Origin: Mycobacteriales bacterium
Lineage (GTDB): Bacteria > Actinomycetota > Actinomycetes > JALYNC01
Length of the DNA stretch: 32,239 nt
NCBI GenBank assembly: GCA_050999825.1
Contig: JBPCOX010000260.1
Coordinates: forward strand, 1 to 32,239
Direction of reading: 5' to 3'
Part shown: positions 2,423-22,522 of the stretch, piece after piece
Layout: each line of letters starts with the position of its first letter
Numbering within the stretch: the first letter of the stretch is position 1
Translations under genes and position numbers: made by a program
Notes under the pieces: model-generated
Database searches by the model: none
Told to the model about the DNA's origin: nothing
Seen by the model: only the letters and a program-made list of their open reading frames with translations

Positions 2423-4464
2423 ACACCGAGCGGACCTACCTCGGGTACGCCGCTGCGCCGGCAGCCACCGGAACCCAGGTCACCGGTACCCATGGACTGG
2501 GCCAAGCCCAGGCCACCGAAGTCTTCGGGTCCTACACCATGCCCGAGCACTCCCCCGCCGGGTTCGCCCTGGACGTCGGCGCCAGCCTGTCGATCTGGAC
2601 GATAACCGCCTGGGTGAACGCCGGCGTGAACGCGCACGTCTACCGGGCCAGCGACCCCGACGCCCTGCACGGTCGCGACGTCGCGCTCAAGGTGCTGCTG
2701 CCGCAGTCCGCCCACGGCCGCCAGGACCAGGTAGTGCACGAGGTGGCGGCGATGAGCTCGCTGACCCTCGGCCATCCGCACCTGATGTCCTCGACCATCG
2801 CCCGCCGGATCAACTCCGGGCCCTACACCGGCGGCGTGCTCATCGTCATGCCGTGGGCGTCGCTGAACCTGCGCGAGTACGTGCTGGCCATCCGCCGCGG
2901 CGACGAGCTGCCCGACGAGGGTCGCTGGGCGCGGACCACCTCGATGTGCGAGGCGCTGGCCGGCATCGCCGACGGGCTGGCCCACCTGCACGAGCTGCAG
3001 ACCTCGCACGGCGACGTCAAGCCCGACAACATCATGCTCGTCGACGGGGTGTGGAAACTCGGCGACTTCGGGCTGACCCGGCCGATGGAGGGCTCCTACG
3101 TCCTGTCCGCGCCGGGCACTTTGAGCTACACCGCACCGGAGGAGGCTCGCGCCCAGCACGCCGACCCGGCCGCGGAGATCAAACGGCGACCGGCCGGGGA
3201 CGTGTGGGCCCTAGGGGTCACCCTGCACTTCGCGGTCACTGGCGGCCGGTTTCCGATGCCCGGCATCACGCCCGACGAGCGGCTGGCCGCGGTCCGGCAA
3301 GGCGTCATCCAGATCTCGCCGGAGGTCCAGCTGCCGGAGCTGCGGCACCTGCTCGGCGAGCAACTGCTCGTCGACGACATGCACCGAGGGGCGCAGTCAT
3401 ACGAGCGGCGGACCTCGGCGTCGATGGCCGGTGAGGTGCTGCGCCGGATCGCGGCCACCGAGCACCTGCCGACCCGGCGGATCCGGGTCGAACCGGTCGT
3501 CGACTCCGACGCGATGCTGCGCTACCGCGGCCAGTGCGAGCGGGTCGCGGCGCAGACCGTCGAGCAGTGGCGCGACCTCGGGCCCTGGGACTCCGACCGC
3601 GCGGCGACGACCCAGCGCTCACGCGGCGTCCTGGGCACGATGCTCACCAACCGCCTGTCCGGCCTGGAGCCACCCCCGGAGTTGCGGCTGCGCAAGAGCG
3701 TGCTGGCCCGGACGTTCGGTCTGCGGGCGCCGTACGAGAGGTGCCGCGTCGCGGCCCGGGAGAACGCGGTAGTGCGGTACGCACCGCCGATCGAGGACAG
3801 CTCCCGGGTGGCCCGGCGGCTGCTCGCGGTCAGCACCTTCCTGGTGCTGCTGACCGCCCTGACCACCGCGGGGACGCCGCCGGCCGCTCGGACGATCCTG
3901 GCCGCGGGGTTGATGGCCGGGGTGGTCGCGTTGTTCGCCGCCGTCGCGATCGGCGGCCGGTTCCCGGAGCCCGCCTACGTCTTCGGTTCACGGTCCGGGC
4001 CGCTGGTCGGCGCGCTCACCGGGGCCGTCCTCGGGCTGTCCGCGCTCGTACCGCTGACCCGCATCGTGGCGGGGTCGGGCGCGGCCGCCGGGTCGGCCGA
4101 CGCCTCCGGCGTACGCGCGCTGCACGACGTGCTGCTCGTCCTTCCTTCGGGTGCGGCGGTGGCCCTGCTCGGCTGGTACGGCGCCGGAGTGCTGACCACC
4201 CGGCACGCCATCGCCACCCAGCGGCGGGCCGCGAACCCGGTACGTGGGGACGTTCCCCACCCCAGCGGGCGACCGGCGCCGGCCCCTCAGGTGCAACACC
4301 GGCCGGTCCAGCCGAACTGGTCCCCACCGCGGGTCACGGAGCCGCTGCGGATGCCACCGACCGCGGTCCCGGTGCCGTCGCCGGTACGGGCACCGGTGGC
4401 CCAACCTGATCCCGAACCCGTCTCCCGGCGCCGGTCGTCGCGCCGGCGTACCCGTGGCGGGTGA
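2419..4464 (+). CDS. Hanks-type Ser/Thr protein kinase with multi-pass C-terminal membrane region
   Basis: Kinase motifs are present: VALKVL (catalytic Lys), SHGDVKPDNIML (catalytic loop, HGD rather than HRD), LGDFGL and SYTAPEE. The C-terminal third has about four hydrophobic helices (LLAVSTFLVLLTALTT, ILAAGLMAGVVALFAAVAIGG, LVGALTGAVLGLSALVPL, LLVLPSGAAVALLGWYGAGVL). GTG 2419 forms a GTGA overlap with the upstream stop and follows a GGGAGGG Shine-Dalgarno at 2405-2411. The 2071 ORF start is an out-of-gene extension. Confidence 0.85.
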   Translation: MNTERTYLGYAAAPAATGTQVTGTHGLGQAQATEVFGSYTMPEHSPAGFALDVGASLSIWTITAWVNAGVNAHVYRASDPDALHGRDVALKVLLPQSAHGRQDQVVHEVAAMSSLTLGHPHLMSSTIARRINSGPYTGGVLIVMPWASLNLREYVLAIRRGDELPDEGRWARTTSMCEALAGIADGLAHLHELQTSHGDVKPDNIMLVDGVWKLGDFGLTRPMEGSYVLSAPGTLSYTAPEEARAQHADPAAEIKRRPAGDVWALGVTLHFAVTGGRFPMPGITPDERLAAVRQGVIQISPEVQLPELRHLLGEQLLVDDMHRGAQSYERRTSASMAGEVLRRIAATEHLPTRRIRVEPVVDSDAMLRYRGQCERVAAQTVEQWRDLGPWDSDRAATTQRSRGVLGTMLTNRLSGLEPPPELRLRKSVLARTFGLRAPYERCRVAARENAVVRYAPPIEDSSRVARRLLAVSTFLVLLTALTTAGTPPAARTILAAGLMAGVVALFAAVAIGGRFPEPAYVFGSRSGPLVGALTGAVLGLSALVPLTRIVAGSGAAAGSADASGVRALHDVLLVLPSGAAVALLGWYGAGVLTTRHAIATQRRAANPVRGDVPHPSGRPAPAPQVQHRPVQPNWSPPRVTEPLRMPPTAVPVPSPVRAPVAQPDPEPVSRRRSSRRRTRGG

Positions 4465-8860: not shown

Positions 8861-10477
8861 TCAGGCTATGTTCGCGGGTCGGCCTTCGGTGGCGTTCAGT
8901 TCGGCCCGTACGGCGGGCAGCACCGCCCGCAGGTAGGCGCCCAGCCGGACGAAGGAGCGCCCCGACGTACGGAAGGCATAGCCGATGGGGACCTCGGCGT
9001 ACCCGAAACCCTGGCCCAGCAGGCTCAGCGTCAGGACCTGCGCGTAGTTGTAGTCGTGCCGGATCACCGCCGCGGCCGCCGCCTGCGGGCTGAACGCGCG
9101 CATACCGCTCTGCCCGTCGGTCAGGTCGCGCCGCCTGGTCATCCAGCGCACCCATCGGGTGAGCAGCACGTTGCCGAGCCGGCGGTGCACCAGCATCCGG
9201 TCGATCCGCCCGGCGAACCGGGAGCCCACGACGTAGTCGGCGCTGCCCTCGAGCACCGGGCGAGCCAGGTCGGGCACCTGCTCGGGCGGGTACTCGCCGT
9301 CGGCGTCGAGGTACACGACGCAGGCCGGCCCGTAGTCCACCGCCTCGGCCAGGCCGCAGCGTAGGGCCGCCCCCAAGCCGGTGTTGGTGCCCAGCGACAC
9401 CACGACGGCCCCGGCCTGGCGGGCCTGCGCGGCGGTGGCGTCGGTCGACCCGTCGTCCACGACGAGACGCACGACGGGCCGGCCGGCCACCCGTTCGGGG
9501 ATCCGGGCCACGACGCCGCCGACCCGCCCCTGCTCGTCGAACGCCGGCAGCACGACGACCACCGGCGCCGTGTCGGCGACCGGTGCCCGCTCGGGGCGGG
9601 CCGGAAGCTGCCGCGGCAACCGGAGCCGGCCGGCGTACGACGGTTCCGGTGCGACCAGCGCGATTCCGCCCACCACGAGGGCGTACAGCGTCTTCAGCGC
9701 GTGCGCGAGGAGGGCCGCGGCCAGCGCCGGTCCGGCCGGGAAGCCGAGGCCGACCAGCGCCGCGGTGGCCGCCGCCTCGTAGCTGCCGAGGCCGCCCGGC
9801 GTGACGGCCACGGTCTGCGCGGCGATCGTCGCGGCGGTCACCACCACCGCCTGGGCGTAGGACAGCGACAGCCCAGCGGCCTCGGCGGCGGCCCACACGA
9901 CCGCGGCCTCCAGCAGCCACGCCACGGTCGCCGCGGCGGCGATCCCCGGTCCGGGCCGGCGCACCGCCGACCCGCCGGCCTGCAGCCGGCGGAGCCACCA
10001 CAGGGTCGCCGCACCCACCGCGAGCAGGACCGCTGTCGCCAGCCAGGGCCAGGGCCCGCGGAGCAGGGTCGGTGCTCCGACCGCGGCCAGCCCGAGCACG
10101 GCGAGCAGGTCGGCGGTCCGCAACGTGACCGCGCTGGCGACCACCTCGGCGGCGGCCAGGTCGGTACGCCGCAGCACGCTGGTCACCCGCAGCACCTCGC
10201 CCAGGCGCAGGGGCAGCAGGTGGTTGCCCAGCAGCGAGACGTGCAGTGCCGCCCAGGACTGGCCGGCCGACAGCCCCGGCAGCATCCGGGACCAGGCCGC
10301 GGCCCGCAGCCCGAACGCCCCGGCGTACAGGACGAGGGCGACCGCCAGCCCGAGCGGCTGCGCCAGCGCGGCGGACAGGGCGGCCCCGACGGGTGCGGCC
10401 GGTACGACGTGCGCCAGGTAGCCCACGGCGAGGGCCAGCACCGCCAGGCCGGCCAGCAGCCGCAGTCGCAAACGCAC
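8861..10477 (-). CDS. fusion protein: N-terminal multi-pass flippase-like (lysyl-PG-synthase-TM/UPF0104-like) domain plus C-terminal family-2 glycosyltransferase (polyprenyl-phosphate sugar synthase-like)
   Basis: The C-terminal half has GT2 motifs: VVVLPAFDEQ, LVVDDGSTDAT, YLDADGEYPPE. The N-terminal ~300 aa are highly hydrophobic with many helices. I chose GTG 10477 because it follows a purine-rich GGCGAGGGGCGGGGG stretch. The longest ORF start (10633) and ATG 10531 would run into the divergent gene. Confidence 0.78.
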   Translation of the reverse strand: MRLRLRLLAGLAVLALAVGYLAHVVPAAPVGAALSAALAQPLGLAVALVLYAGAFGLRAAAWSRMLPGLSAGQSWAALHVSLLGNHLLPLRLGEVLRVTSVLRRTDLAAAEVVASAVTLRTADLLAVLGLAAVGAPTLLRGPWPWLATAVLLAVGAATLWWLRRLQAGGSAVRRPGPGIAAAATVAWLLEAAVVWAAAEAAGLSLSYAQAVVVTAATIAAQTVAVTPGGLGSYEAAATAALVGLGFPAGPALAAALLAHALKTLYALVVGGIALVAPEPSYAGRLRLPRQLPARPERAPVADTAPVVVVLPAFDEQGRVGGVVARIPERVAGRPVVRLVVDDGSTDATAAQARQAGAVVVSLGTNTGLGAALRCGLAEAVDYGPACVVYLDADGEYPPEQVPDLARPVLEGSADYVVGSRFAGRIDRMLVHRRLGNVLLTRWVRWMTRRRDLTDGQSGMRAFSPQAAAAAVIRHDYNYAQVLTLSLLGQGFGYAEVPIGYAFRTSGRSFVRLGAYLRAVLPAVRAELNATEGRPANIA

Positions 10478-14873: not shown

Positions 14874-15917
14874 GTGAGTCGCGCACGGTGTGAGGTGGTC
14901 CCCGGTCCCGGCAGCGTGGCGCGGCGACGCGACAGCCTGTTGTGGGCCTCGGAGTCGATCCCGGAATCGGTGTGGGACACCCTCGTCGCCTGCCTCGGAC
15001 TGGGTGCGCGGGCCGGCGCCAGCGCCGCGGTCTTGCAGGGCCTGGCCGAGACGATGCTGCCGGGCCTGGATCACGGCAGCGCGTTCGCCATCGTGGTCAG
15101 CGACGGCACGGCCGGCTTCGTCCTGCGGCACGGTGGGGCCGAGGTGCTGGTCGATGGCGAACCGATCCCGGGCGGCCCTCTGACGCCGCTGGGCGCCGGA
15201 ACCTCCCTGCTCGTCGGCGAGCCGACCGCGGTGCGGGCCGCGGCCGAGCAGGCACCGGCGTACCGGCACGACCTCGACGGCGGCGCCGTGCCCGGGGCGG
15301 CATTGCGCTGGACCCCCGCGGCGCGTGCCGAGGCGCTGGCCTCGGCCGTTCCCGCGCCGCCGCCCGCGGAATCCGCGCCCGTCGTCGCGCAACCCGGACC
15401 GGAGTTGCCGTCGGCCGGCCTGTTGCCGTCGGCCGGCCTGTTGCCGTCGGCCGCCCCGTCGCCGTCGGCCGCCCCGTCGCCGACGCCCGAATTCGCGGCC
15501 GAGGCGACCTCCGACCCGGAGCGCACCGAGTTCCACCCGCCGCCGGATCCCGAGTCCCCGACGACCAGCGGGTTCCGGCCGAACGCCGGAGTGCTGGTGT
15601 TCGAGGACGGCGCGACCATCTCCCTGCACGGTGACGTCGTCCTCGGCCGGCGACCGGACGCCCACGAATTGGTGGTCAACGGCCAGGCCGAGCCGGTGGT
15701 CATCAACGACCCCGATCACGTGCTGTCCGGGGCCCACGCCGCCATCCGCTGTCACGGCGACGACGTGGTCGTCGTCGACCTGGATTCGCTGAACGGCACC
15801 CACGTCGCCGCGCCCGAGGCCCGGGAATGGACCCGCCTCAACCCCGGTGCGCCGTTCCGGATGGAGGACGGCTTCCGGATGCTGCTGGGCTGGACGGTGC
15901 TGACCTACCGGCGCTAG
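14874..15917 (+). CDS. FHA-domain protein (C-terminal FHA, repeat-containing Pro/Ser/Ala linker)
   Basis: The C-terminal FHA reads VVLGRRPD..VLSGAHAAI..DLDSLNGTHV. GTG 14874 lies 1 nt after the glgX stop (14870-14872) and follows an AGGGAGG Shine-Dalgarno at 14863-14869. Confidence 0.75.
   Translation: MSRARCEVVPGPGSVARRRDSLLWASESIPESVWDTLVACLGLGARAGASAAVLQGLAETMLPGLDHGSAFAIVVSDGTAGFVLRHGGAEVLVDGEPIPGGPLTPLGAGTSLLVGEPTAVRAAAEQAPAYRHDLDGGAVPGAALRWTPAARAEALASAVPAPPPAESAPVVAQPGPELPSAGLLPSAGLLPSAAPSPSAAPSPTPEFAAEATSDPERTEFHPPPDPESPTTSGFRPNAGVLVFEDGATISLHGDVVLGRRPDAHELVVNGQAEPVVINDPDHVLSGAHAAIRCHGDDVVVVDLDSLNGTHVAAPEAREWTRLNPGAPFRMEDGFRMLLGWTVLTYRR
15404..15485 (+). repeat. in-frame 18-bp tandem repeat, about 4.5 units, inside the FHA gene
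   Basis: The units are gttgccgtcggccggcct x2 (identical, 15404-15439), then gttgccgtcggccgcccc, gtcgccgtcggccgcccc and a partial unit. Together they encode LPSAGLLPSAGLLPSAAPSPSAAPSPTP. Confidence 0.85.
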
Positions 15918-16421: not shown

Positions 16422-18998
16422 TCAGGCCGAGACGACGAGCCCGAGTTCGGCCGGCGTGCAGAGCCGGTCGTGCCGCGGCAACACCCGCACCGTGTAGCCG
16501 AACCCGCCGGTGCGCTCCAGCGGTACCGCCGTCTCGTACCAGTGCCGGCTGCCGTCCGAGCCGACGAACTCCATCGGTAGCAGGCTGACGTCGTGCAGCA
16601 TCTCGGCGTCGTCGGCCGGGCCGTACGCCGCCTGGACTTCCACGTCCTGCGGGTTCAGGCCGCCCAGCACGACCTCGGCCCGCAGCGACAACCGGCTGCC
16701 GAGTTCCGGGATGTCCCCGACGCCGCTGGACTCCACGTGCGCCACCTGGACCTCGGGCCACTGCGCGCGGATCCGCTGCTGCCAGGCCGACAGCTCGCGT
16801 GCACCGGCGAAGTCGTCCTCGGCCAGTGCGGTGGCCGCTCGCGCCGCGGGGGCGTAGAGGTGGTCGACGTAGTCGCGGACCATCCGCGAGGCCAGCACCT
16901 TGGGACCCAAGGTCTGCAGGGTGTGGCGCACCATTTCGACCCAGCGCCCGGGGACCCCGGCGGCGTCACGGTCGTAGAACCGGGTCGCTACCTGCTTTCC
17001 GAGCAGGTCGTAAAGCGCGTTGGCCTCCAGATCGTCGCGCCGCTCGGCGTCGTACACCCCGTCCGCGGTCGGGATGGCCCACCCGTTCGCGCCGTCGTAC
17101 ATCTGGTCCCACCAGCCGTCGCGGATCGACAGGTTAAGCCCGCCGTTCAGCGCCGACTTCATCCCCGAGGTGCCGCAGGCTTCCAGGGGCCGTAACGGGT
17201 TGTTCAGCCAGACGTCGCAGCCCCAGTAGAGGTAGCGCGCCATCCCGATGTCGTAGTCGGGCAGGAAGACCAGCCGGTGGCGGATCTCCGGATCGTCGGC
17301 GAAGCGCACCATCTGCTGGATCAAGGCCTTGCCGCCGTCGTCGGCCGGGTGGCTCTTGCCCGCGATGACCAGTTGCACGGGCCGGTCGGGGTCCAGGAGC
17401 AGGTCCCGCAACCGCTTCGGGTCGCGCAGCATGAGGGTCAGCCGCTTGTACGACGGCACGCGGCGGGCGAACCCGACTGTGAGCACGTCCTCGTTGAGCA
17501 CGGTGTCGGCCCAGCCCACCTCGGCTTCGCTGGCGCCGCGCTGCAGCGCCGAGGCCCGCACGCGGCGGCGTACCTCTTCCACCAGCCGGCCGCGCAGCGT
17601 GCGACGTAGCTTCCAGATCGTCTCGGCCGAGGTGTCCGCGATCGGCGCGAAGTCCGCCGGATCGCCTTGCAGCCGCAGGCCGTCGCCGTGCGTGGCCAGT
17701 TCCAGGATCTCCCGCGCCGCCCAGGTCGGCGCGTGCACGCCGTTGGTGACCGAGGAGATCGGCACCTCGGTGGTGTCGAACCCGGCCCACAGCGAGCCGA
17801 ACATCTCCCGGCTGACCGCGCCGTGCAGCGCGCTGACGCCGTTGGCCCGCTGGCTCAGGCGCAGACCCATGTGGGCCATGTTGAACACGCCGGTGTCCCC
17901 CGCCTCGGCGCCGAGGGCGAGGATGCGATCCAGCGGTACGCCGGGTGGGGCGTTGGATCCGCCGAAGTAGGACCGGATCAGCTCAACCGGGAAACGGTCG
18001 ATCCCGGCCGGAACCGGGGTGTGCGTGGTGAACACGGTGCCCGCCCGCACCGCCTGCAGGGCCTCGTCGAAGCTGAGCGGGGTGCCGCCGGCCGAACGCT
18101 CGGTGAGCTCGCGGATCCGCTCCAGCCCGAGGAAGCCTGCGTGGCCCTCGTTGGTGTGGAACACCTCCGGCTCGGCGCTGCCGGTCAGTCGGCAGTAGGC
18201 GCGGATCGCGCGTACGCCGCCGATGCCGAGCAGCATCTCCTGGACCAGGCGATGGTCCTTGCCGCCGCCGTAGAGCCGGTCGGTGACCTGGCGCTGCGCG
18301 GGGTCGTTGTCCTCGATGTCGGAGTCGAGCAGCAGCAGCGGCACCCGCCCGACCTGCGCCCGCCAGAGTTGGGCGTGCAGGGTGTGCCCCTCGGGCAGCC
18401 CGATGGAGATCCGCACGGGGGTGTCGTCGACCTCCCGGACCAGCGACAGCGGGAGGCCGTGCGGGTCCAGCGCCGGGTAGTGCTCGAGCTGCCAGCCGTC
18501 GGCGGACAGGCTCTGGCTGAAGTAGCCCGCCCGGTAGAGCAGGCCGACGGCCAGGATCGGTACGCCGAGGTCGCTGGCCGCCTTGAGGTGGTCACCGGCC
18601 AGGATGCCCAGGCCACCGGAGTACTGCGGGAGCACCTCGGTGATGCCGAACTCGGGGCTGAAATAGGCCACCGCGGCCGGCCCGGCGTCCGGCCCCCGGT
18701 AGTGGTCCTGGTACCACTGCGCCGCGCTGAGGTAGTCGCCGAGGTCGTCGACCAGGTCCGACAGCCGGCGCAAGAAGCGCTTGTCCTTGCTCAGCGCGGC
18801 CAGCCGCGGCGCGGACACCTCGCCGAGCAGGGTCACCGGATCGCCCTTGGCGGCCCGCCACAGCTCGGGATCGATCGCCTCGAGCAGTTCACGGGTCTCC
18901 GCATGCCACGACCAGCGCAGGTTGTGCACAAGCTCGCCCAGCGGCTCGAGCTGCGGTGGGAGGGTGGCCCGCACGGTGAAGCGGCGCAGTGCTTTCAC
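16422..18998 (-). CDS. glgP: alpha-glucan (glycogen/maltodextrin) phosphorylase, actinobacterial GlgP type
   Basis: GGLGILAGDHLKAASDLG is present, as is the PLP-lysine region EACGTSGMKSALNG. The N-terminus VKALRRFTVRATLPPQLEPL is typical of the family. I chose GTG 18998; the upstream extension to 19115 is Gly-rich repeat translation. Confidence 0.9.
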   Translation of the reverse strand: MKALRRFTVRATLPPQLEPLGELVHNLRWSWHAETRELLEAIDPELWRAAKGDPVTLLGEVSAPRLAALSKDKRFLRRLSDLVDDLGDYLSAAQWYQDHYRGPDAGPAAVAYFSPEFGITEVLPQYSGGLGILAGDHLKAASDLGVPILAVGLLYRAGYFSQSLSADGWQLEHYPALDPHGLPLSLVREVDDTPVRISIGLPEGHTLHAQLWRAQVGRVPLLLLDSDIEDNDPAQRQVTDRLYGGGKDHRLVQEMLLGIGGVRAIRAYCRLTGSAEPEVFHTNEGHAGFLGLERIRELTERSAGGTPLSFDEALQAVRAGTVFTTHTPVPAGIDRFPVELIRSYFGGSNAPPGVPLDRILALGAEAGDTGVFNMAHMGLRLSQRANGVSALHGAVSREMFGSLWAGFDTTEVPISSVTNGVHAPTWAAREILELATHGDGLRLQGDPADFAPIADTSAETIWKLRRTLRGRLVEEVRRRVRASALQRGASEAEVGWADTVLNEDVLTVGFARRVPSYKRLTLMLRDPKRLRDLLLDPDRPVQLVIAGKSHPADDGGKALIQQMVRFADDPEIRHRLVFLPDYDIGMARYLYWGCDVWLNNPLRPLEACGTSGMKSALNGGLNLSIRDGWWDQMYDGANGWAIPTADGVYDAERRDDLEANALYDLLGKQVATRFYDRDAAGVPGRWVEMVRHTLQTLGPKVLASRMVRDYVDHLYAPAARAATALAEDDFAGARELSAWQQRIRAQWPEVQVAHVESSGVGDIPELGSRLSLRAEVVLGGLNPQDVEVQAAYGPADDAEMLHDVSLLPMEFVGSDGSRHWYETAVPLERTGGFGYTVRVLPRHDRLCTPAELGLVVSA

Positions 18999-19067
18999 CG
19001 GGGGCACGATACCCAACCTCGGTACCAGTCCCGGACCGTCGATGACAGCGCTTTCAGGGTGGCCGCT

Positions 19068-19142
19068 CCACGCCGATCCGGCCCCACGCCGACCCACGCC
19101 GATCCCGCCGCCCACGCCGATCCCGTCCCCCCACGGCGATCA
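19068..19142. repeat. five iterated 12-mers CCACGCCGAYCC in the glgP upstream region
   Basis: Copies start at 19068, 19094 and 19112 (all perfect CCACGCCGATCC), 19084 (CCACGCCGACCC) and 19131 (CCACGGCGATCA). The last copy overlaps the left arm of the 76-bp repeat. Confidence 0.65.
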
Positions 19143-19210
19143 TGAAGATTGGTGGACCGATTTGCCGGGAAACGCCCGATGCGACACGTTCGAAGGTTCA
19201 TGATCGCCGG
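19135..19210. repeat. 76-bp repeat, copy A, with 12-bp terminal inverted repeats
   Basis: The sequence is ggcgatcatgaa...ttcatgatcgcc(gg). It is 68/76 identical, without gaps, to 20348-20423 in the same orientation. The arms are at 19135-19146 and 19197-19208 and are perfect reverse complements. Confidence 0.88.
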
Positions 19211-19299
19211 CAAAGGGTGGTTTCCACAGAGCGGACGGCGTGTCCACCAAGTGCCGGCTACGCCACCACGCCGAGGCGCACGGACCTATACCAGTGCTC

Positions 19300-20295
19300 A
19301 TGTCAACTCCGGCCGGGCTCGCAGATCTCGTGCAGGCGCAACAGGGATGCCTGAGTCGCCTGCAGGCCCGCGCCCGCGGAGTGACGGACGCGGGCATCGC
19401 CGAGCGGCTGAGGGCACTGGAGTGGCGGTCGGTGCACAACGGCGTGCTGTGCCAGCCGAGCCCAGACGCGGATGCGACGAGGTTGCGAGCGGCACTCCTG
19501 ACGCAGTGCCCGGACGGCCGGTGGCAGGAAGGCGTCGCCCTGAGCCACGCGACAGCCGCGGCCATCCACGGGTTCGAAGGGCTCTCGCCCGATCCGCGGG
19601 TGCACCTCGTCGTACCCAGGATCTGGACGCCCCAGCACCGAAGGACCGGCGTGCGGTTGCACCGATGCCTCACGCCGGCTGAGCACATCCGGGCCGCCGA
19701 GGGGTTCCCGGTGACGACGGCCGCTTGGACCGCACTCACGCTGATCCGCCTCGGCGCACGGCGCCAGGCGGTCGTCGTGGCCGACAGCGCGCTGCGCTCC
19801 GGGGCGTGCACCCTGGCCGACCTGCGGGCCGGCTTGCCCCTGCTGGCGCGGCTGCGCGGCTGCGTGCAGGCCCGCGAGGTCGTTGACCTGGCCCGTGCCG
19901 GCACCGACTCGCCCCAGGAGTCGGTCACGCGGATGATCATCCTCGAAGGCGGGTTTCCCCACCCGGACGTCGACATGCGGCTGTACGACGAGTTCGGCAC
20001 CCTGCTCGCCCGCGGTGAACTCGGCTACCGACGGCTGCTGATCTGGCTGGAGTATGACGGCTACGACGCACATACCCGGCGTCCGGCGTTCCGCCTGGAC
20101 CGATCGCGACAGAACTGGTTGGCCGACCGCGGCTGGTACATCCTGCGCTACGTCGACCAGGATCTATGGCAGGGCGAGCGGCGCATCCAGTACGACGTAC
20201 GCCGCGCTATAGAGCGAGCCCCCGTGCGGATCGCGGCCCTGCCCGCGGGTCTGTCCCCGGAGGCCGACGAAGCCCGCCGCGCTTTGCACAGCTGA
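19300..20295 (+). CDS. DUF559 / Vsr-like endonuclease-fold domain protein with an N-terminal putative HTH region
   Basis: The C-terminus LIWLEYDGYDAHTRR..RSRQNWLADRGWYILRY is typical of actinobacterial DUF559 proteins. I chose ATG 19300; ATG 19240 is the longest-ORF alternative. Confidence 0.72.
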   Translation: MSTPAGLADLVQAQQGCLSRLQARARGVTDAGIAERLRALEWRSVHNGVLCQPSPDADATRLRAALLTQCPDGRWQEGVALSHATAAAIHGFEGLSPDPRVHLVVPRIWTPQHRRTGVRLHRCLTPAEHIRAAEGFPVTTAAWTALTLIRLGARRQAVVVADSALRSGACTLADLRAGLPLLARLRGCVQAREVVDLARAGTDSPQESVTRMIILEGGFPHPDVDMRLYDEFGTLLARGELGYRRLLIWLEYDGYDAHTRRPAFRLDRSRQNWLADRGWYILRYVDQDLWQGERRIQYDVRRAIERAPVRIAALPAGLSPEADEARRALHS

Positions 20296-20347
20296 CCGGC
20301 CCACCATCCCGCTCCGGCCGCCCGACCCGCTACCGGCGGCCCGCCGT

Positions 20348-20423
20348 GGCGATCATGAAGATGTGTGGACCGATCTGCCCGGAATCGCCCAGTGCGACAC
20401 GTTCGAAAGTTCATGATCGCCGG
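20348..20423. repeat. 76-bp repeat, copy B, with 12-bp terminal inverted repeats
   Basis: The arms are at 20348-20359 (ggcgatcatgaa) and 20410-20421 (ttcatgatcgcc). The copy ends 59 nt upstream of the glgE ATG. Confidence 0.88.
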
Positions 20424-20482
20424 AGAGGACGAGTGGCGGGCCGGTTCGAGGCCCGAGCCGGTGCTCGGTAGCGTTGCTCGCG

Positions 20483-22518
20483 ATGACAGGACGCCTGGGA
20501 ATCACCGACATCTCCCCCGCAATTTCCTGCGGGATGTACTCCGCTCGCGCCGTCGTCGGCGAGCGGGTGCCGATCGCGGCCACCGTGTTCCGCGAGGGGC
20601 ACGACAAGGTCGGCTGCAACGTGGTCTGGACACCGCCGCGGGAGGGCGCCGCGCGCCGGGAACGCCCGCCGTTCCTGCCGATGACGCCCGGTACGCCGGG
20701 GCTGGACCAGTGGCACGCCACCGTGGTGCCCGATCGCCCGGGCCCCTGGACGTTCGTCATCGAGGCCTGGAGCGACGAGCTGGGCACCTGGCGCTACGTC
20801 ATCGGCAAGAAGACCGAGGTCGGGCAGAGCGCCCAGGAACTGGCCAACGACCTGGAGCACGGCGCCCGGCTGCTGGAGCGCGCGTCGCGGCTGGTGGCCA
20901 AGGAGTGGAAGCCGCGGGTGCTGGACGCCGCGGCCACCCTGCGCGATGAGACCCGGGAGCTGCAGCACCGGCTGTCCCCCGCCTTCGAGCCCGAACTGCA
21001 CGAGATGCTGCTGCGGCACCCCGTGCGCGAGCTGCTGACCAAGTCCCGCCGCTACGACATCTGGGTCGACCGCCCGCGGGCGCTATACGGCAGCTGGTAC
21101 GAGTTGTTCCCCCGGTCCGAGGGCGGCTGGAACGACGACGGCAGCCCGCGGCACGGGACCTTCCGCGACGCGGCCAAGCGGCTGCCGGCCATCCAGGACA
21201 TGGCCTTCGACGTGGTCTATCTGCCGCCGATCCACCCCATCGGCGAGGTGAACCGCAAGGGCAAGAACAACACCCTGGTCACCACGCCGGACGACGTCGG
21301 CTCGCCCTGGGCGATCGGCAGCAAGGACGGCGGGCACGACGCGATCCACCCGGAGCTGGGGACGATCGAGGATTTCGACGACTTCGTCGAGCAGACCCGC
21401 GCGCTGGGCATGGAAGTCGCCATGGACTTTGCTCTGCAGGTCGCGCCGGACCATCCGTGGGTGACGAGCCACCCCGAGTGGTTCACCACGCTGCCCGACG
21501 GGACGATCGCCTACGCCGAGAACCCGCCGAAGAAGTACCAGGACATCTACCCGATCAACTTCGACAACGCAGCGCCGGCGAAGCCGGGCGACCAGCCGGG
21601 CGACCTATCGGGGCTGTCCGCCGAAGCCCTCCGCGTGCTCACCCACTGGTGCGAGCACGGCGTGCGCATCTTCCGGGTCGACAATCCGCACACCAAGCCG
21701 CTGGACTTCTGGCACTGGCTGATCTGGCAGGTCAAGCGGGACTTCCCGGACGCGCTGTTCCTCGCCGAGGCGTTCACCCGGCCGGCGATGATGCACACCC
21801 TGGCCAAGATCGGGTTCACCCAGTCCTACACCTACTTCACCTGGCGCACCCAGCGGTGGGATCTGGAGCAGTACGGCCGAGAGCTGGTGGACTCCGCGGA
21901 CTACATGCGGCCCAACTTCTTCGTCAACACACCGGACATCCTGCACGCGAGCCTGCAGTACGGCGGCCCGCCGATGTTCAAGATCCGCGCCGTGCTGGCC
22001 AGCACGATGTCACCGACGTGGGGCGTCTACTCCGGTTACGAGCTGTTCGAGCATGTCGCGGTGCGGCCGGGCAGCGAGGAGTACCTGGACTCCGAGAAAT
22101 ACCAGCTGCGCCCGCGCGACTGGGAGGCCGCCGGCCGCGAGCACCGCACGCTGGCGCCCTACCTCACCCGGCTGAACTGGGTACGCCGCGAGCACCCGGC
22201 CCTGCAGCAGCTGCGCAACCTGCACTTTCACCACGCGGACAACGACAACATCATCGTCTTCTCCAAGCGGGCCGAGCGGGAGGACGGCACGGAGGGCACC
22301 GACGACGTGGTCCTGGTCGTCTGCTCGCTGGACAGCCACACCACGCAGGTGTCCTCGCTGGCCCTGGACATGCCCGCGCTCGGGCTGGACTGGCACGACC
22401 GGTTCGCCGTCGAGGACCAGATCACCGGCGCGACCTACCACTGGGGCCAGTCCCCGTACGTCGAGCTGAACCCCTACCTCGAGCCGGCGCACCTGCTCGT
22501 CGTACGGCGGTACGGGCC

Positions 22519-22522
<4 letters not shown>
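20483..22522 (+). CDS. glgE: alpha-1,4-glucan:maltose-1-phosphate maltosyltransferase GlgE
   Basis: The N-terminus is [29 protein letters not shown]. Family blocks are present: [19 protein letters not shown] and [30 protein letters not shown]. Confidence 0.92.

Follow-up and report, generated by a model that had tools for sequence, protein, structure and literature searches.

The DNA described here is a contig of 32,239 nucleotides from a Mycobacteriales bacterium (GenBank assembly GCA_050999825.1, contig JBPCOX010000260.1), which we will call the window. Between glgP and glgE, it carries a gene that encodes a putative nuclease and is bracketed by two copies of a 76-bp palindromic element. 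Relatives of this gene are bracketed in the same way, including at other chromosomal positions and by elements with other arm sequences. The order of the unit is a palindromic element of about 75 bp, a TCCACAG direct repeat, a gene with AbiEi-like and Vsr/DUF559 regions, and a second palindromic element:

19135..19210, left palindromic element (copy A), 76 bp, of the type-2 family defined below; direct repeat of copy B, with an nhmmer match to the family
19134..19146, outer arm of copy A, CGGCGATCATGAA, 13 nt; 100% complementary to 19197-19209 and 20410-20422
19197..19209, inner arm of copy A, TTCATGATCGCCG, 13 nt; inverted partner of 19134-19146
19223..19249, plus strand, direct repeat TCCACAG-N13-TCCACCA, between copy A and the start of the gene
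19300..20295, plus strand, the bracketed gene, 331 amino acids; AbiEi-like winged-helix and middle domains, then a Vsr/DUF559-type nuclease and a C-terminal helix
20348..20423, right palindromic element (copy B), 76 bp, in the same orientation as copy A; direct repeat, with an nhmmer match to the family
20348..20359, inner arm of copy B, GGCGATCATGAA, 12 nt; inverted partner of 20410-20421
20410..20421, outer arm of copy B, TTCATGATCGCC, 12 nt; inverted partner of 20348-20359

A repeat search of the window confirmed what an earlier note on this DNA had reported from the letters alone: copies A and B are identical at 68 of 76 positions in direct orientation, and all eight differences are in the interior (positions 16, 17, 28, 33, 38, 45, 46, and 61). 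The perfect terminal inverted arms, which the note gave as 12 bp, are 12-13 bp long (GGCGATCATGAA/TTCATGATCGCC) and are separated by 50 nt in each copy, and the TTCGAA site that it saw next to the right arm is present in both copies. GGCGATCATGAA has four exact matches in the window and six matches if one mismatch is allowed (the mean for shuffled sequences was 0.06, and none of 100 shuffles reached six). Copy B begins 52 nt downstream of the stop codon of the bracketed gene. The copies are part of a longer direct repeat (19124-19210 and 20337-20423, 87 nt, 86% identity), and to the left of each copy, weak similarity extends for about 45 nt into C-rich tracts. Most elements of the family have a C-rich tract before them and a G-rich tract after them (CCCC...arm ... 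arm...GGGG; examples are L106 at 9815-9831 and 9909-9925, L152 at 3665-3680 and 3755-3770, and many solo elements, where L numbers are our labels for related loci). As these tracts weakly extend the palindrome past the conserved arms, the true element may be about 85-100 bp. Directly to the left of copy A, the repeat search also found:

19068..19129, plus strand, three to four degenerate arm-like tandem repeats, CCACGCCGATCC(C/G)G

These repeats look like an arm plus its flank, CCACGGCGATCATG, and the orthologous loci that we examined do not have them. We also considered a LexA-type box at GTTCGAAGGTTC, which was rejected from the sequence because its halves are direct instead of inverted, and a small open reading frame (ORF) that would start from the ATG in the arm, which was rejected because the interiors of the elements are variable and contain indels.

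The 331-amino-acid ORF is the only gene between the two copies. Its product has an AbiEi-like region (residues ~1-200), a Vsr/DUF559-type PD-(D/E)xK nuclease domain (residues ~205-300), and then a conserved C-terminal helix. AbiEi models from PADLOC match residues 7-190 (E = 3.5e-17). In the AlphaFold2 (AF2) model of the protein (pLDDT 92.6), the first ~200 residues are similar in fold to AbiEi (6y8q, Foldseek E = 3.7e-6) and to Rv2827c (1zel, E = 8e-5). The DUF559/Vsr fold that the earlier note assigned to the gene is weak by Pfam (PF18741, REase_MTES_1575, E = 1.5e-4 and 22.2 bits, below the cut-off of 38.2). It is borne out by the fold and by the match of the family's profile to the DUF559 structure PDB 3hrl (E = 3e-6). 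Homologs have precomputed PF18741/PF04480 matches. The nuclease domain also resembles the homing endonuclease I-Bth0305I (3r3p; Foldseek probability 0.99, E = 0.06; profile E = 0.066). The acidic and histidine positions of catalytic type (E207, E251, D253, and H258) are kept across the family, as is G254. There were no matches for the gene in NCBIfam or in PHROGs. Pfam, NCBIfam, PADLOC, and the fold search identified only the AbiEi-like and Vsr/DUF559 regions, and none of them found an HUH/Y1 transposase (IS200-like, RAYT). Also, there is no gene for an AbiEii (DUF1814) toxin next to the bracketed gene in the window, in L106-L109, in L152, or in L021, L080, and L093.

The AbiEi-plus-DUF559 architecture is very common: 18,753 clusters at 50% identity match a profile of close relatives with E ≤ 1e-10, and roughly 1,100 close clusters have E ≤ 1e-30. 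The only public contig with exactly this protein is L105 (Logan SRR33880239, 1788 bp), which terminates inside copy B, and many homologs are on contigs of just 1.2-2.5 kb. This fits with short-read assemblies breaking at the repeats, and the repeats may break other such assemblies as well.

TCCACAG is found at the matching place upstream of nearly all members of the family, including a clade with only 31-34% identity and a Streptomyces homolog that lacks the elements. The motif usually occurs twice in direct orientation, at a spacing of about 20 nt, after the left element and before the start codon (L106 9925-9950, L108 9800-9830, L021 1743-1768, and L149 at about 2955). From this conserved placement, we predict that the repeat is probably the promoter or an operator of the bracketed gene.

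Bracketing by elements of 70-80 bp with terminal inverted repeats (TIRs) is a property of the gene family, and it occurs in three chromosomal contexts. By a hairpin scan and by aligning the upstream flank of each gene to its downstream flank, the flanking repeat was significant in about 21 of the 23 non-redundant loci with enough flanking sequence. These bracketed relatives span 31-76% protein identity to the window. The flank alignments had scores of 58-137, as compared to 27-39 for shuffled controls; the exception was L124, which was counted on its hairpin arms alone (score of 34 vs. 32). About 12 of the element pairs are direct and about 8 are inverted, and the orientation differs even among orthologous loci. 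Besides the glg locus, a paralogous clade (31-34% identity) in Blastococcus and Geodermatophilus lies between mutB-meaB and an AIG2-like gene and is bracketed (L021, L080, and L093). In a third context, a relative with 29% identity (L155) lies between elements that measure 74 and 72 nt and whose arms are unrelated (CGACTTCACCCAC). The earlier note had offered three explanations for the repeats, and a DUF559-associated insertion mechanism is the one that these three contexts support best. At another locus, L142, a GC-only tandem repeat of about 100 nt (2804-2905, GCCGCCGCGCGCC...) is directly upstream of the 72-nt element that precedes a distant member of the family, P0067.

The genes on either side of the unit in the window are:

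16422..18998, minus strand, glgP-type alpha-glucan phosphorylase (TIGR02094, E = 1e-225), the left host gene
20483..22522, plus strand, glgE maltosyltransferase (PF11896/PF21702), the right host gene

Downstream of glgE are treS and then pep2/mak. The spacings that the earlier note gave are correct: copy A is 137 nt from glgP (taking the conserved GTG start at 18998, VKALRR), and the end of copy B is 59 nt from the ATG of glgE at 20483. On the far side of glgP and a DUF456 gene is an FHA-domain gene with four to five tandem 18-nt repeats (GTTGCCGTCGGCCGGCCT, window 15404-15493), which would encode a short repeated peptide.

In Modestobacter sp. DSM 44400, glgP and glgE are directly divergent, and their 138-nt spacer contains neither the gene nor an element. 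This implies that the gene and the elements belong together and were inserted, instead of arising by duplication of a resident motif. The earlier note had proposed an insertion into the shared spacer that either duplicated the element or brought it along. By the comparison to Modestobacter, the insertion stands, as does the arrival of the element with it, and duplication within the spacer is ruled out. Proteins with 62-65% identity to that of the window are found between glgP and glgE in Geodermatophilaceae metagenome-assembled genomes (MAGs) and in metagenome contigs, with elements on both sides in every one. A metagenome scan with the family alignment gave 32 loci, and those with enough flanking sequence, even at 35-45% identity, are all between glgP and glgE (L123 is ambiguous). 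The closest relative of the window's GlgE is from a Geodermatophilaceae MAG (79% identity), and Modestobacter's is 67% identical. In the distant glg loci, GlgE is only 51-56% identical to the window's, and the nearest named relatives of this group are Frankiales and Mycobacteriales MAGs. As the same spacer is occupied despite this divergence, the insertion is not recent: an ancestor of a clade at the level of Geodermatophilaceae/Frankiales acquired the unit in its glgP-glgE spacer, and inheritance of the unit has been vertical since. Within the spacer, the gene faces glgP in the Frankiales-like group (L122, L125, L126, and L128) and glgE in the Geodermatophilaceae group (the window, L106, L108, and L124). 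At L123, a glgE-like N-terminal fragment (175-756; 41% identity, residues 3-202) is upstream of the family gene and reads towards it, which is a different orientation than at all other loci. The fragment may be a truncated paralog or the result of a rearrangement.

Given the position of the unit in a shared control region, one might expect that the repeats are a duplicated pair of operators, as the earlier note had suggested, for a regulator that coordinates glgP with glgE-treS-pep2-glgB. It would also fit that the unit was kept in a spacer whose GlgE has diverged so far. We consider this glg-specific explanation to be extremely unlikely: the same architecture is found at non-glg loci (meaB/AIG2 and elsewhere), solo elements are beside unrelated genes, at their 3' ends, with a strong depletion from divergent promoter regions (1 of 50, P = 7e-5), and Modestobacter runs the same cluster without the unit. 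Also, a conserved −10-like sequence of glgE, TAGCGT, is outside of the element. In the window it is at 20468-20473, between copy B and the ATG and 8-9 nt before the ATG. TAGCGT and the ATG are kept in L106, L108, L152, L154, and the gene-less Modestobacter spacer, that is, with or without the inserted unit (this segment is at 20468-20485 in the window, 4985-5003 in L151, and 11214-11230 in L106). This conservation suggests that the mRNA of glgE is leaderless or nearly so and that its core promoter is outside of copy B.

Elements are also found without the gene. A scan of a genome collection for the arms gave 104 loci, with about 60 exact-arm elements in Geodermatophilaceae and allied MAGs and isolates. 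The other ~45 matches are unrelated chance or coding sequence. These include seven false positives (L020, L052, L055, L058, L083, L086, and L089, from Microbispora and Sphaerimonospora) that represent one orthologous and apparently coding sequence: their flanks are 84-98% identical, and both arm decamers occur by chance, 52 nt apart. The exact-arm elements have two types of interior on the same arms. Type 1 goes with the meaB-clade gene and forms near-perfect 68-nt hairpins, while type 2, which includes the window's copies, goes with the glg-clade gene. There are at least 16 solo elements in MAG MGR_bin242 and 9 in the Blastococcus MAG RYN_128. In MGR_bin242, the 16 are of type 2 and are found alongside a glg-locus gene that is flanked by the same family of elements.

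We classified the locations of 50 elements with a gene caller based on GC content at third codon positions (GC3), which recovers the known genes of the window. None of the 50 is inside a called gene. They lie between genes in tandem (31), convergent (18), or divergent (1) orientation, whereas the background counts are 179/38/60 (P = 7e-5). The copies are close to stop codons, at a median of 13 nt, and in 15 cases a TGA in the arm serves as the stop codon. The orientation of solo elements relative to the upstream gene is not biased (4 vs. 5), which contradicts an orientation-dependent (RNA-like) function. In Geodermatophilus sp. TF02-6, a single element is located between meaB and AIG2, exactly at the place that element-gene-element takes up in three relatives. 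This is what recombination between the flanking copies would leave behind, or, in the reverse direction, insertion of the gene into a solo element would account for the relatives. Also, a solo element in Geodermatophilus sp. DF01-2 is replaced by a native hairpin in G. sabuli, with no visible target duplication. The idea that these are high-copy repetitive extragenic palindromes (REPs) is not supported: nhmmer profiles run over 517 kb of related loci found one further solo element, and there is no further copy in the remaining 31 kb of the window, so the window holds two. As for the earlier note's suggestion of a mobile element similar to miniature inverted-repeat transposable elements (MITEs), the dispersed solo elements with the same arms agree with it, and the low to moderate copy numbers and the lack of target-site duplications do not.

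Could the elements be ordinary REP or MITE repeats that are moved by an unrelated transposase or a host factor, with the nuclease gene as a passenger or a favored neighbor? Solo elements do far outnumber the gene-linked copies, their preference for 3' ends is like that of classical REPs, and two distant clades of paralogs in one host family have the same arm. However, the bracketing of about 21 of 23 loci, in three contexts and with diverse arms, cannot recur so often by chance capture. Also, no transposase gene is beside any examined copy or in any locus examined, and the gene-less spacer of Modestobacter has no element. So, it seems quite unlikely that the gene is a bystander.

The sequence of the arms changes between lineages while their inverted symmetry is kept, and at each locus the sequence is identical in both arms and in both copies. 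The variants are CGATCATGAAG, CGATCATGACG, GGTGATCATGAC, CGATCAAGAAC, GTGATCATGGCGTT, CGAGACCTGCGT, and CAGCGACGTTTGCGTCACG, and arms range from the GATCATG type to the unrelated CGACTTCACCCAC and CGAGACCTGCGT. Across 33 elements, 12 of the 18 arm positions show compensatory two-sided changes, and the covariation score is 0.318 (vs. 0.167 in shuffles; 0 of 500 shuffles reached 0.318). The score is just 0.03-0.14 if the arms are slid by 1-3 columns. (These figures are inflated by the relatedness of the elements, and the pattern is plain by eye.) The length of the element stays between 68 and 82 bp throughout, and the interiors cannot be aligned between clades. Within a locus, the left and right copies are 78-89% identical, as compared to 57-80% for equivalent copies in different genomes. 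As the interiors as well as the arms are homogenized, recombination or gene conversion must keep acting on the pair.

In the group with GTGATCATGGCGTT arms, each element has three copies of the arm, in forward (F) or reverse (R) orientation: F-F-R on the left and F-R-R on the right. Judging from these sequences, the odd number of arms looks like repeated sites for a DNA-binding protein and not like a simple stem. A solo element from an uncultured Frankineae MAG (L009 5489-5558) has CGATCATGAA arms and a third, internal copy of the arm, GCATGATCGCC. This links the two-arm type of Geodermatophilaceae to the three-arm F-F-R/F-R-R type.

The covariation of the arms is what would be expected of a stem, so the elements could be selected for their structure as nucleic-acid hairpins: bidirectional terminators, insulators, or mRNA-stabilizing stems that insulate the gene. 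The near-perfect hairpins of type-1 relatives, the stability of copy A (z = −3.6), and the tendency of solo elements to hug stop codons all fit this explanation. In contrast, the interiors of type-2 elements are unstructured and variable, and copy B is less stable (z = −1.6; the minus strands have z = −1.0 and −2.0). Copy A is between the 5' ends of glgP and the bracketed gene, where a terminator has no role. Scans of 18900-20600 identified no intrinsic terminators and no sigma-70 promoters; there is no T-tract or terminator-like site; and Rfam has no match at the gathering score in the window, with only chance-level matches (E > 2) in 18900-20600. A simple stem would also not explain the F-F-R/F-R-R layout or the identical arms in both copies. 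Overall, we find the hairpin explanation very hard to sustain.

We think it slightly better than an even bet that the two repeats are a pair of DNA elements cognate to the nuclease gene that they bracket. This partnership would be similar to that of REPINs and RAYTs, which are REP doublets and REP-associated tyrosine transposases (PMC3116915; PMC3337134; bioRxiv 10.1101/2021.07.10.451892), but with an unrelated enzyme. As in REPIN/RAYT systems, the gene for an enzyme is flanked by a short palindromic repeat that is also dispersed extragenically (here, in relatives such as MGR_bin242), and the sequences of the gene and the repeat seem to coevolve. In both cases the gene descends vertically and keeps its position (the glg spacer, or between meaB and AIG2 for the second clade), and the repeats favor 3' and convergent intergenic space. 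Unlike in REPIN/RAYT systems, the enzyme combines an AbiEi-like winged helix with a Vsr/DUF559 PD-(D/E)xK domain instead of being of the HUH/Y1 (IS200-like) type; there are units to tens of copies instead of hundreds; the elements have long terminal inverted arms about 50 nt apart; and mobilization is putative.

The elements can also be compared to MITEs and their parent insertion sequences. They share the length of ~70-80 bp, the terminal inverted repeats, the dispersed non-coding copies, and the presence of the same termini around a protein-coding unit. Unlike with MITEs, we saw no target-site duplications, the linked gene does not encode a known transposase, and on each side of this gene there is a complete TIR-bearing element instead of a single TIR. 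Also, the gene-bearing unit has stayed at one locus over long evolutionary time. The single element in TF02-6 resembles a solo long terminal repeat (LTR), in that recombination between flanking repeats would yield one repeat where relatives have repeat-gene-repeat. This analogy is only to the outcome, as each element measures about 75 bp and the unit has no relation to retroelements.

Another relevant group is the EDxHD or Vsr-like homing endonucleases such as I-Bth0305I (PMC3239194; 3r3p), which have a Vsr-like fold at the C terminus and a putative DNA-binding region at the N terminus. By analogy to I-Bth0305I, we would expect the bracketed protein to dimerize on a (pseudo)palindromic site, and both show presence/absence polymorphism at a fixed site. 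However, the gene described here is free-standing and intergenic instead of being within an intron or intein, its N-terminal module is AbiEi-like instead of NUMOD/HTH, and two whole putative sites flank the gene instead of one split site. The similarity is only at the level of the fold.

The last comparison is to AbiEi, the antitoxin of type IV systems (PMC7319586; PMC3985639; 6y8q, 1zel), whose winged-helix domain and next domain are homologous to the N-terminal part of the bracketed protein. AbiEi proteins bind inverted repeats near their own gene. Unlike in AbiE systems, there is a fused nuclease domain instead of an AbiEii (DUF1814) partner, and the repeats are on both sides of the gene and elsewhere in the genome.

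This homology raises the chief rival to a cognate repeat-enzyme pair, which is that the arms have a regulatory or defensive role. The unit would be static, and the arms, the TCCACAG repeats, or both would be operators for the repressor part of the protein, with looping that keeps the nuclease gene tightly repressed. The nuclease would be the effector, for example of a one-protein system akin to abortive infection or toxin-antitoxin, and the solo elements would be extra sites, decoys, or relics. The N-terminal two thirds of the protein match AbiEi antitoxins in both sequence and fold, and inverted repeats are what AbiEi and Rv2827c bind to control their own expression (PMC7319586). Also in agreement with this explanation are the conserved TCCACAG repeat immediately before the gene, the chromosomal position that has been fixed over long times, and the constant arm spacing of about 60 bp. 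However, an AbiEii toxin gene is not adjacent, and a downstream set of operators has no precedent in AbiE systems. Solo elements, with at least 16 in a genome, are at the 3' ends of unrelated genes and are nearly absent from divergent spacers; the interiors are homogenized and not just the arms; and the orientation of both the interior and the gene flips between lineages. We therefore consider a static unit to be rather unlikely.

If the repeats are instead the cognate elements of the nuclease, then we infer binding, cleavage, and mobility, as follows. The AbiEi-like winged-helix module would bind the arms, which form two inverted half-sites about 60 bp apart, a distance that places both on one face of the helix. 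Binding of this module to the TCCACAG repeats may also provide autoregulation. The nuclease domain would nick or cut at or near the arms. Repair of the break would homogenize the flanking copies and would occasionally flip the interior or the whole gene, or copy the small element to a new site. Recombination between the flanking copies would delete the gene and leave a solo element. These steps are plausible because AbiEi-family proteins bind inverted repeats (PMC7319586) and because Vsr-like nucleases with a fused, putative DNA-binding region serve as homing enzymes (PMC3239194). In I-Bth0305I in particular, a Vsr-like nuclease is combined with an N-terminal region that putatively binds DNA, and the enzyme apparently works as a dimer on its pseudopalindromic site (PMC3239194). 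The arms supply inverted repeats 1.2 kb apart, which could mediate flips of the gene or of an element.

A stronger version of this proposal is that AbiEi-DUF559 proteins drive a new class of repeat-enzyme system in which arms are recognized and cut and elements are spread, flipped, and homogenized. This would be a replicator that is analogous to REPIN/RAYT, of independent origin, and without an HUH or DDE transposase. We put this forward only tentatively, as somewhat less than an even bet. The most economical view is that the arms are the cognate site of the encoded protein, in which case the gene and its elements are an old, vertically inherited unit that is able, now or at one time, to copy its small element.

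Several observations weigh against a cognate and mobile pair. First, transposition is not known to be carried out by a PD-(D/E)xK nuclease on its own. Second, we observed neither a fresh insertion nor a target-site duplication: the flanks do not form a direct repeat but lengthen the palindrome, with C-rich sequence to the left and G-rich sequence to the right. We found no clean pair of empty and filled sites either, as in the sole candidate (L008 vs. L024) the empty site holds another, native hairpin. Third, the copy number is modest, as in the 517 kb of related loci with their one further solo element. Because the solo elements were ascertained by exact arms, the conservation of arms among them is partly circular. 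Fourth, the relatives L117 and L149 have no element, L142 and L156 have an upstream element only, and the distant paralogs L148 and L149 are unbracketed, so the architecture is not universal in the superfamily. Fifth, two paralogous clades in Geodermatophilaceae with just 31-34% identity share the arm CGATCATGAAG, while Frankiales-like orthologs use GTGATCATGGCGTT. Thus, the arms track the host lineage as well as the gene, which also fits recognition by a host factor or cross-talk via a shared pool of repeats. Finally, the long retention of the unit in one metabolic spacer could mean that it has a function for the host and is not selfish.

In the literature that we searched, there was no functional study of the AbiEi-plus-DUF559 architecture, nor any work that connects DUF559 to AbiEi, to flanking repeats, or to repeats in the taxa described here. 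We found no prior description of this gene-repeat unit, although an enzyme gene that is partnered with its own dispersed palindromic repeats is already a known kind of system. If spread that is driven by the nuclease were shown, then the unit could be more than a variant of the known enzyme-repeat partnership.

For the organisms in part of the Geodermatophilaceae/Frankiales radiation, the unit divides in two a control region that the GlgE-pathway genes share. For the protein family, which is very large in the actinobacteria, the repeats are a first testable clue as to what its members act on. The linkage of gene and repeat predicts a DNA site for each member of the family, as the arm can be read beside each gene. 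If the nuclease does act on the arms, then the REPIN/RAYT lifestyle would have been invented independently, and the family would be a source of natural nucleases whose specificities differ between lineages.

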